Below are positions 1-882 of a stretch of DNA of 882 nt, piece by piece. The notes under the pieces were generated by a model that had not been told where the DNA came from, searched no databases, and saw only the letters and a list, made by a program, of their open reading frames with translations. The position numbers and the translations under genes were made by a program. The first letter of the stretch is position 1. Every line of letters starts with the position of its first letter. This DNA is from Escherichia coli. Its GTDB lineage: Bacteria > Pseudomonadota > Gammaproteobacteria > Enterobacterales > Enterobacteriaceae. The stretch lies in the NCBI RefSeq assembly GCF_003334765.1, contig NZ_QOWT01000095.1. One strand, 5' to 3'.

Positions 1-41
1 GATAAAGACAAAAATGGCCGCAGGCTGTTACCCCTGCGGCC
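1..41 (-). terminator. Rho-independent terminator of the ldr mRNA (copy 1)
   Basis: Perfect 9-bp GC-rich stem GGCCGCAGG (16-24) pairing with CCTGCGGCC (33-41), with an 8-nt loop. On the minus strand it is followed by ATTTTTGTCTTTATC (complement of 15..1). It lies about 50 nt downstream of the ldr stop codon. Confidence 0.72.
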
Positions 42-90
42 GGTTTCGGGCGCATATTGCCATCACGGCAGCCTGACGCCCGTTTTCACC

Positions 91-198
91 TTACTTCCGG
101 TTACGCCACCAGCTGACAATCGCTGCGGTAATAATTCCCGCCAGGATCGGTGCTGCCAGGTCGTGCCAGAAAATCATGGCAAACTGCGCGAGCGTCAT
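91..198 (-). CDS. ldr: Type I toxin Ldr, 35-aa small membrane peptide (LdrA/LdrC-type sequence); paralog letter cannot be assigned from sequence
   Basis: Reverse complement of 91-198 reads ATG ACG CTC ... CGG AAG TAA, giving MTLAQFAMIFWHDLAAPILAGIITAAIVSWWRNRK. This is a hydrophobic helix with a basic C-terminal tail, matching the Ldr toxin family from memory. An AAGG Shine-Dalgarno-like motif (complement of 206-209) lies 7 nt upstream of the ATG (196-198). The gene is shorter than the ORF-track threshold, so it is absent from the track. Confidence 0.9.
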   Translation of the reverse strand: MTLAQFAMIFWHDLAAPILAGIITAAIVSWWRNRK

Positions 199-210
199 AT
201 AGCCGCCTTG

Positions 211-239
211 TTGTAATGACAACATTTTGCGGCTATTCT
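211..239 (+). promoter_or_regulatory. Candidate sigma70 promoter of rdl (copy 1)
   Basis: -35 TTGTAA (211-216), 17-nt spacer, -10 TATTCT (234-239), about 7 nt before the proposed Rdl 5' end at 246. Motif match is moderate and was read by eye. Confidence 0.5.
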
Positions 240-245
240 TGAAGT

Positions 246-312
246 GTCTGGTTTCAAGATTAGCCCCCGTTCTGTTGTCAGGTTTTACCTCTCAACGTGC
301 GGGGGTTTTCTC
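246..312 (+). ncRNA. rdl: Rdl antisense RNA (type I antitoxin), about 60-67 nt, complementary to the ldr 5' leader
   Basis: The sequence GTCTGGTTTCAAGATTAGCCCCCG...CGGGGGTTTTCTC matches my recollection of Rdl. It sits downstream of a sigma70-like promoter (211-239) and ends in an intrinsic terminator: stem CCCCCG (264-269) pairing with CGGGGG (300-305), then TTTTCTCTTT (306-315). It lies antisense to the ldr leader, as established for ldr/rdl. The exact 5' and 3' ends are estimates. Confidence 0.75.
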
Positions 313-388
313 TTTCCAGCAACCAATGCCACCAGGGATAAAGCCCCCGCAACATTGCGCCTCACCGGATAATTCCGGCTTGGTGTGG

Positions 389-417
389 ATACTACGTCTC
401 AATTCATCTTCACTTCA
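389..417 (-). promoter_or_regulatory. Candidate ldr promoter region, minus strand (tentative)
   Basis: On the minus strand, TAGTAT (complement of 394..389) is a reasonable -10, but the -35 at the proper spacing (TGAAGT, complement of 417..412) is poor. A start near 381 would give a transcript of about 377 nt to the terminator T-run, consistent with the roughly 370-nt ldr mRNA reported in the literature. A small hairpin CCGGA/TCCGG (complement of 378-365) would sit at the 5' end. Placement is inferred, not demonstrated. Confidence 0.25.
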
Positions 418-535
418 TCCCTGAAATGTTTGCAATAAAGAGTACATTCCGGCTTTTCAACAGCTGTTGCAGTCGTTTCATGAGTGCTCTGGATGATGCT
501 TCCAGCTCGGGTTGCCAATATTTACTTGTGGAAGA

Positions 536-576
536 GATAAAGACAAAAATGGCCGCAGGCTGTTACCCCTGCGGCC
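536..576 (-). terminator. Rho-independent terminator of the ldr mRNA (copy 2)
   Basis: Identical hairpin (551-559 with 568-576) followed on the minus strand by a T-rich run (complement of 550..536), downstream of the ldr copy at 626..733. Confidence 0.72.
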
Positions 577-625
577 GGTTTCGGGCGCATATTGCCATCA
601 CGGCAGCCTGACGCCCGTTTTCACC

Positions 626-733
626 TTACTTCCGGTTACGCCACCAGCTGACAATCGCTGCGGTAATAATTCCCGCCAGGATCGGTGCTGCCAGGTCGTG
701 CCAGAAAATCATGGCAAACTGCGCGAGCGTCAT
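626..733 (-). CDS. ldr: Type I toxin Ldr, 35-aa small membrane peptide, second copy (identical to 91..198)
   Basis: Same sequence as 91-198 shifted by 535 bp: ATG complement at 731-733, stop complement at 626-628, identical 35-aa product. Confidence 0.9.
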   Translation of the reverse strand: MTLAQFAMIFWHDLAAPILAGIITAAIVSWWRNRK

Positions 734-745
734 ATAGCCGCCTTG

Positions 746-774
746 TTGTAATGACAACATTTTGCGGCTATTCT
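746..774 (+). promoter_or_regulatory. Candidate sigma70 promoter of rdl (copy 2)
   Basis: Same elements at offset 535: -35 TTGTAA (746-751), -10 TATTCT (769-774). Confidence 0.5.
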
Positions 775-780
775 TGAAGT

Positions 781-847
781 GTCTGGTTTCAAGATTAGCC
801 CCCGTTCTGTTGTCAGGTTTTACCTCTCAACGTGCGGGGGTTTTCTC
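781..847 (+). ncRNA. rdl: Rdl antisense RNA, second copy
   Basis: Identical to 246-312 at offset 535, with the same promoter-like elements (746-774) and terminator stem (799-804 with 835-840) followed by a T-run. Confidence 0.75.
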
Positions 848-882
848 TTTCCAGCAACCAATGCCACCAGGGATAAAGCCCC

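Follow-up and report, generated by a model that had tools for sequence, protein, structure and literature searches.

The window (the whole 882-nt stretch of DNA that was analysed) is almost certainly made up of two adjacent LDR units of E. coli, each an Ldr/Rdl type I toxin-antitoxin module in which a minus-strand mRNA would encode a small hydrophobic toxin, and a short plus-strand RNA would pair with the leader of that mRNA and prevent toxin synthesis. The identification is secure because the window is 100% identical to annotated loci; it draws on sequence identity, family membership and chromosomal location, and on how the parts are arranged and conserved, each of which we observed directly, and nothing contradictory was found. 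The Ldr/Rdl type I toxin-antitoxin system has been textbook knowledge since 2002, and the array described here is an already known and ordinary locus, as the first-pass annotation had anticipated in calling it known rather than novel: it is annotated in K-12 and is found in all of the E. coli genomes searched.

Self-comparison of the window at all offsets revealed a direct repeat with a period of 535, over which positions 1-347 and 536-882 are identical (347/347), in agreement with the 535-bp direct repeat of the first-pass annotation. The next-best repeat period gave 34% identity, which is the chance level, and a repeat finder recovered the same repeat family, with its length capped at 300 nt. 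The repeat can be divided as follows.

1-535, no strand: complete LDR unit, occupying slot LDR-B of the array between kdsA and chaA (period 535, offset mapping to K-12 and strain 184/2aE, annotated context)
536-882, no strand: first 347 nt of the LDR-C-slot unit, 100% identical to 1-347 (self-comparison, offset mapping)
395-535, no strand: array-specific spacer, common only to the E. coli tandem units (no alignment to LDR-D, Klebsiella aerogenes or Salmonella)

Using megablast, we found the window in 5,426 of 5,426 complete E. coli genomes. It is 100% identical to the corresponding stretch of strain 184/2aE (NZ_CP072858.1) and 99.5% identical to that of K-12 MG1655 (878/882 bases, four substitutions), in line with the near-identical hits to ldrA/ldrC and rdlA-C that the first-pass annotation had predicted. 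The matching stretch of strain 184/2aE, like those of an MG1655 resequence and of NC_000913.3, is part of a three-unit array flanked by kdsA and chaA, with the three Ldr CDSs spaced 535 bp apart in the order kdsA - 3 x ldr - chaA; the location between chaA and kdsA given in the first-pass annotation is therefore correct. Each of these tandem units of ~530 bp carries one ldr and one rdl, the arrangement that characterizes LDR loci. We assigned the window to the LDR-B and LDR-C slots on the basis of its flanks and spacer, because only 0 (184/2aE) or 4 (MG1655) mismatches were encountered at the B-C offset, as compared with 16 or 25 at the A-B offset. Once this offset is applied, the curated features of NC_000913.3 fall at 91-198 (ldrB), 246-311 (rdlB), 626-733 (ldrC) and 781-848 (rdlC). 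The K-12 LDR-B/LDR-C pair (ldrB-rdlB and ldrC-rdlC; b4421-b4424) thus shares with the window its locus, 535-bp spacing, flanks, and CDS and ncRNA coordinates, and differs from it by the four substitutions (positions 114, 154, 173 and 807). A search for plasmid carriage of this LDR type yielded no good evidence: 22 'plasmid' records matched, all of them typed as non-mobilizable, and several of these are megabase-sized and chromosome-like.

The toxin gene is present in both units, preceded by a potential ribosome-binding site.

91-198, minus strand: ldr toxin CDS in the ldrB slot, for an LdrA/C-type peptide of 35 aa, plus stop (translation, Pfam PF13940, identity to WP_000170955.1)
626-733, minus strand: ldr toxin CDS of unit 2, in the ldrC slot (translation, annotation)
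203-209, minus strand: Shine-Dalgarno-like AAGGCGG, 4 nt before the ldr AUG (sequence; AGGCGGC invariant in 8/8 aligned copies)

Both CDSs encode the same 35-aa peptide, MTLAQFAMIFWHDLAAPILAGIITAAIVSWWRNRK, which is identical to WP_000170955.1 and to K-12 LdrA and LdrC. As NCBIfam models matched neither this peptide nor a 44-aa form of it, we used Pfam for the family assignment, and there the entire peptide aligned with the entire Ldr_toxin model (PF13940; query 1-35 against model 1-35 of 35, E 1.8e-24, 85.9 bits). It also aligned end to end with the LdrD structure PDB 5LBJ (E 1.5e-10). The hydrophobic core, LAAPILAGIITAAIV, has a GRAVY of 2.4 and is followed by the basic tail RNRK, which, together with the alignment to the helical 5LBJ, gives the single hydrophobic helix and basic C-terminal tail typical of the Ldr family. 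The first-pass annotation had described a hydrophobic 35-aa minus-strand peptide in each unit and had named it Ldr, and both statements were borne out. The 44-aa form (91-225 and 626-760), which was reported by the ORF lister, arises because a second ATG lies 27 nt further upstream, in the same frame as the ldr AUG (198-196, minus strand). We rejected it as the main product, the ATG at 225 having no Shine-Dalgarno sequence and being missing from LDR-D, K. aerogenes and Salmonella.

The activity of the peptide can be taken from published work. LdrA, whose sequence is that of the window peptide, forms a transmembrane alpha-helix and is known to be toxic on overproduction, with ATP falling within 2 min (PMC8309996), while overproduction of LdrD is lethal and is counteracted by RdlD (PMC4147584, PMC8167048). 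Ldr of the window would accordingly be expected to span the membrane with a single helix and to end in a basic tail; overproduction of LdrA or LdrD has been reported to lead to ATP loss, nucleoid condensation and growth arrest.

Three of the four differences from MG1655 lie within the ldrB CDS: that at position 173 replaces T9 of K-12 LdrB with I, that at 114 replaces G29 with S, and that at 154 is silent. The fourth, at 807, is inside rdlC, and renders the second Rdl identical to the first. The B-slot unit consequently encodes the A/C-type peptide and not K-12 LdrB (I9T, S29G), and the two units have become identical throughout the 347 nt that can be compared between them. This state points to gene conversion within the array, a common event in tandem repeats, with a repeat-polishing artefact being the less likely cause. 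We consider it quite improbable that the identity of the units, including the A/C-type peptide in the ldrB slot, merely reflects the assembly or polishing of a collapsed tandem repeat. Such repeats, of 535 bp and >97% identity, are indeed prone to consensus errors, and MG1655 carries the three ldrB CDS substitutions and the one in rdlC, yet assemblies of K-12 derivatives (J53, TOP10, XL1-Blue and O16:H48 mouse-gut isolates) match the window at 99.8-99.9%; in J53, for instance, all three CDSs are of the A/C type, and position 807 is the single difference from the window. However, the same state recurs in several assemblies that different laboratories obtained independently, from hosts unrelated to one another, and both the unit spacing and the flanks are intact. 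Whether the units became identical by conversion or by artefact, the identity of the locus is unaffected.

We aligned the window unit with the four K-12 units, LDR-A to LDR-D, with a further E. coli copy that is LDR-D-like, and with copies from K. aerogenes and Salmonella enterica. The elements of the ldr mRNA are as follows.

389-394, minus strand: probable ldr promoter, -10 TAGTAT, with transcription starting near 382 (onset of cross-genus conservation)
6-41, minus strand: intrinsic terminator of the ldr mRNA, a stem at 41-16 (9 bp, 8 of them G-C) followed by AUUUUUGUCU (terminator scan)
541-576, minus strand: ldr terminator of unit 2 (terminator scan)

Conservation across genera starts abruptly at TAGTAT/TAGAAT (394-389, minus strand) and runs to the U-tract of the terminator at about position 6. 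Within it, GTAG-AT is invariant in 8/8 aligned copies, a leader block, GGTGAGGCGCAATGTTGCGGGGGC, is invariant too, and the terminator persists in the other genera, two of its pairs having changed in a compensatory manner in Salmonella. This conserved span delimits a promoter and a transcript of ~377 nt. The minus strand would thus give rise to a stable, highly structured mRNA of that length, with its -10 element near 394-389 and its terminator at 41-6, that encodes Ldr.

The antisense RNA and its putative promoter are found on the opposite strand.

246-311, plus strand: Rdl antisense RNA antitoxin, in the rdlB slot (Rfam RF01813, 91.4 bits; coincides with rdlB in NC_000913.3; stable fold)
781-846, plus strand: Rdl antisense RNA of unit 2, in the rdlC slot (Rfam RF01813, 91.4 bits; annotated rdlC)
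211-239, plus strand: putative Rdl promoter, -35 TTGTAA (211-216), 17-nt spacer and -10 TATTCT (234-239), 6 nt before G246 (position and conservation)
746-774, plus strand: putative Rdl promoter of unit 2 (sequence)

In both units, the full length of the Rfam rdlD model (RF01813, model 1-66 of 66) matched with a score of 91.4 bits (gathering score 50; E 4.9e-20), and the matches coincide with the annotated rdlB and rdlC. The short, terminator-bounded plus-strand RNA that the first-pass annotation had placed in the ldr leader, at 246-312, is therefore a member of the Rdl family. Rdl is predicted to fold into a long hairpin, with a 9-bp G+C stem followed by UUUUCU (dG -26.7 kcal/mol, z = -4.5); none of 200 shuffled sequences was as stable, and the hairpin was also detected by the terminator scan. 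It is antisense in cis to the ldr 5' UTR, with perfect complementarity to the leader 48-113 nt upstream of the ldr AUG, and is clear of both the Shine-Dalgarno sequence (209-203) and the AUG (198-196).

A scan of the window for sigma-70 consensus promoters returned no site at the threshold of 9/12, and we therefore assigned the promoters by position and cross-genus conservation; both the ldr and the Rdl promoter are in this sense inferred. The Rdl promoter has 8/12 consensus matches, just under the scan cut-off of 9/12, and its hexamers are retained as TTGnAA and TATnnT in K. aerogenes and Salmonella. It lies directly opposite the region of ldr close to the Shine-Dalgarno sequence. The lack of a promoter that passes the consensus scan might be taken to mean that the repeats are non-functional remnants of ldr/rdl, in decay and with their expression lost, but we find this scarcely credible: the ORFs are intact and identical to the experimentally studied LdrA, Rdl matches its full model with terminator, the promoter hexamers, Shine-Dalgarno sequence and terminator are conserved across genera, and no complete E. 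coli genome (0 of 5,426) lacks the locus.

The consensus fold of the ldr transcript includes the terminator, a 5' hairpin with one compensatory pair and, as a separate element, the mirror image of the Rdl hairpin. In addition, the Shine-Dalgarno/AUG region (~223-189) is predicted to pair with the 3' UTR (~56-82), and GGCGCA (361-356) with UGCGCC (55-50). In the alignment, 96.6% of the cells of this long-range structure can pair, as compared with 33-52% when the partner is slid. The structure contains only one compensatory pair, and its covariation score, calculated from the same sequences from which the structure was derived, was reached by 64/500 shuffles. A long-range fold-back of the Shine-Dalgarno region on the 3' UTR, resembling the fold-back inhibition of hok, is thus suggestive only.

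As Rdl leaves the ldr Shine-Dalgarno sequence and AUG uncovered, any block of Ldr synthesis must be indirect. A candidate target is found within the leader.

195-257, minus strand: candidate leader ORF (ldrX-like), UUG plus 19 codons, with its UGA overlapping the ldr AUG as AUGA (ORF list and comparison; putative function)

The sequence GGGGG (268-264), the six nucleotides that follow, and the UUG (257-255) all lie within the Rdl-complementary stretch. In K-12 LDR-A, -B and -C, the UUG frame reaches the ldr AUG through an AUGA overlap, as it does in the window. A length difference of one nucleotide brings the UUG into frame with ldr in LDR-D, the LDR-D-like copy and Salmonella, with no stop between them. 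The leader UUG is missing from K. aerogenes. Four of five lineages therefore retain a start beneath Rdl from which the reading frame stays open as far as the ldr AUG, in two geometries, and the leader ORF itself is not conserved as a single entity, being frame-shifted (LDR-A/B/C), in frame (LDR-D and Salmonella) or absent (K. aerogenes).

The review by Kawano (2012) is said to be the source that defines ldrX. Gerdes and Wagner proposed that this leader ORF is coupled to ldrD translation and is blocked by RdlD, a model that is as yet unconfirmed, and reviews place Rdl over the 5' UTR and not over the RBS or start codon (PMC4147584, PMC8167048). For both LdrA and LdrD, the regulatory mechanism has been stated to be unknown (PMC8309996). 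In PMC4147584, PMC8309996, PMC8167048 and PMC7373196 we found no direct test of repression by RdlA, RdlB or RdlC, although repression by RdlD has been shown (PMC4147584). A start codon beneath Rdl is compatible with the proposed coupling to ldrX without proving it, and the conservation of the leader is weak evidence, because GGGGG and UUG also complement the terminator stem and 5' tail of Rdl, a constraint that could by itself account for their being conserved.

Taken together, these features suggest the following scheme. A promoter located over the translation-initiation region of ldr would produce the 66-nt Rdl from the plus strand, and Rdl would pair with the ldr leader, such that synthesis of Ldr is prevented. 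The most likely route, to which we give roughly an even chance, is that Rdl occludes a site further upstream at which ribosomes would enter, GGGGG-N6-UUG (268-255); ribosomes starting there would otherwise translate through to the start of ldr, in the manner of the hok/mok/sok and ldrX models. Cleavage of the ldr-Rdl duplex by RNase III probably contributes. Toxicity and repression by Rdl are here taken from the literature, and the leader-ORF coupling and fold-back structure we infer.

Leaving the identification unchanged, Rdl could instead act mainly by directing RNase III to the ldr mRNA, which would be cleaved and then decay, and not by blocking translation of a leader ORF. Complementarity that is perfect over 66 nt makes an ideal RNase III substrate, and the uneven conservation of the leader ORF also speaks for decay. 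In hok/sok, the closest analogue, RNase III cleavage comes after translational repression and is not its cause. RNase III cuts the ldrD-rdlD duplex in vivo, where it is prominent among the substrates of the enzyme, and the half-lives of ldrD and rdlD do increase in rnc mutants, but the changes are described as slight (PMC7373196), and Ldr/Rdl has been classed among the systems that 'inhibit protein synthesis' (PMC4147584). We thus regard a predominantly RNase III-driven mechanism as rather unlikely, and favor occlusion of the leader start.

A broader version of the occlusion reading, which we put forward as speculative and somewhat less likely still, is that the Rdl-covered GGGGG-N6-UUG is the real ribosome entry site of the toxin throughout the family, in two interchangeable geometries: (i) a 20-codon leader ORF coupled through AUGA (LDR-A/B/C), or (ii) an in-frame N-terminal extension of 20 codons (LDR-D and Salmonella). 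If so, it would explain how Rdl represses without contacting the RBS, and some members of the family would make a 55-residue pro-toxin. In either form, the leader start beneath Rdl offers a concrete target for mutations that address the mechanism of repression.

The RefSeq/PGAP records examined annotate all three ldr genes, as 'type I toxin-antitoxin system toxin Ldr family protein', and omit the rdl RNAs, which are present only in the curated NC_000913.3. The claim of the first-pass annotation that the system is invisible to standard ORF calling consequently fails for ldr. As automated RefSeq annotation calls ldr and omits rdl, most records give the impression of toxins without an antitoxin; beyond such annotation hygiene, the significance of the locus is small. 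Four other ORFs were rejected as genes, having no NCBIfam match and being unannotated in three RefSeq records: those of 79 aa (512-751, plus strand), 61 aa (426-611, plus strand), 65 aa (227-424, plus strand) and 39 aa (399-518, minus strand). All four are antisense to ldr or lie in the non-conserved spacer. Rfam matches to sok, enterovirus CRE and bxd_2 were below their gathering scores, and were likewise rejected as family members.

Among known systems other than the K-12 array itself, the experimentally characterised ldrD/rdlD (LDR-D; PDB 5LBJ) belongs to the same family and is built in the same way, with a 35-aa toxin, an antisense RNA overlapping the 5' UTR, and a conserved leader, Shine-Dalgarno sequence and terminator. 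It differs from the window array in being a single copy beside bcsG, at a different chromosomal site, and in having one extra nucleotide in its leader, which places the Rdl-covered UUG in frame with ldrD in place of the AUGA overlap seen in the window. Its peptide is also diverged, LdrD and LdrA being 57% identical (PMC8309996).

The hok/mok/sok system (of plasmid R1 and of chromosomes) resembles Ldr/Rdl in its small membrane toxin, its long, structured 5' UTR, and its antisense RNA that pairs upstream of the RBS, as well as in the proposed coupling to a leader ORF and the possible 5'/3' fold-back. Membership in hok/sok is not indicated: Rfam sok (RF01794) scored 29.3 and 25.8 bits in the window, against a gathering score of 59, and Pfam reported Ldr_toxin only. 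The sok match covers the ldr leader on the minus strand, ending on the ldr AUG, and reflects, faintly, a leader organised along similar lines rather than membership. Fst/RNAI-RNAII (par of pAD1) is a Gram-positive plasmid system that, unlike Ldr/Rdl, has convergent transcripts and repeat-based pairing. Fst and Ldr have been grouped in a single superfamily, and nucleoid condensation is reported for both (PMC4147584).

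Several observations concern the leader of the ldr mRNA, the coordinates being those of the window:

195-268 and 730-803, minus strand: GGGGG-N6-UUG and leader ORF, with the start site within the stretch covered by Rdl
189-223 with 56-82, minus strand (RNA): ldr SD/AUG region paired at long range with the 3' UTR (predicted fold)
356-361 with 50-55, minus strand (RNA): 5' leader paired at long range with the 3' UTR (predicted fold)
196-348 and 731-882, minus strand: sub-threshold match to RF01794 (Rfam)

The ORF that begins at the Rdl-covered UUG is 20 codons long, and in both units of the window its stop overlaps the ldr start as AUGA. 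In LDR-D, by contrast, the equivalent UUG lies in the ldr reading frame, as it does in the LDR-D-like copy of E. coli STEC639 and in Salmonella; the K. aerogenes leader lacks this UUG. The predicted pairing of the SD/AUG region and of the leader with the 3' UTR can form in all eight aligned copies, with only one compensatory pair among them, and this modelled fold resembles the fold-back inhibition of hok. The Rfam "sok" model (RF01794) also matches the ldr leader (29.3 bits, E 1.5e-4), below its gathering score of 59, and the match terminates precisely at the ldr AUG. This sub-threshold hit may reflect either a similar leader organisation or an RF01794 model that extends beyond Sok itself.

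The two units of the window are 100% identical to each other, and the ldrB slot encodes the LdrA/C peptide (relevant positions 114, 154, 173 and 807). Assemblies of K-12 derivatives, such as J53, share this state. The A/C peptide in the B slot, together with the identity of the units, is due either to gene conversion between units of the array or to an artefact of assembly polishing. Positions 395-535 make up the final 140 nt of the 535-bp unit. Their conservation is limited to the tandem E. coli units, with no counterpart found in LDR-D or in the other genera aligned (K. aerogenes and Salmonella). As this segment also contains no recognisable gene, it looks like spacer that has been duplicated and not like a component of the toxin-antitoxin module.

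Tandem duplication also occurs among divergent Ldr copies in other genomes, at positions 1-492 of the K. aerogenes locus (L005) and 385-975 of the E. coli STEC639 locus (L009), with spacings of approximately 480 bp. The neighbourhoods of the divergent copies differ between genomes: those of K. aerogenes adjoin dppF, and the Salmonella locus lies between tsx and yajD.

LDR-like sequence was found in 22 "plasmid" records of the plasmid collection (H26-H45 among them). All 22 were typed as non-mobilizable and several span 0.8-4.9 Mb, suggesting that the large records are mislabelled chromosomes or chromids. The match in Lelliottia and Leclercia plasmids is confined to the Rdl/leader portion, and these plasmids carry no annotated ldr. 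Compared with the curated K-12 reference (NC_000913.3), two PGAP-annotated E. coli records (L001 and L002) each have all three ldr CDSs called and no rdl RNAs, so that most E. coli records present the modules as orphan toxins; the rdl RNAs left unannotated by PGAP score well over the Rfam threshold.
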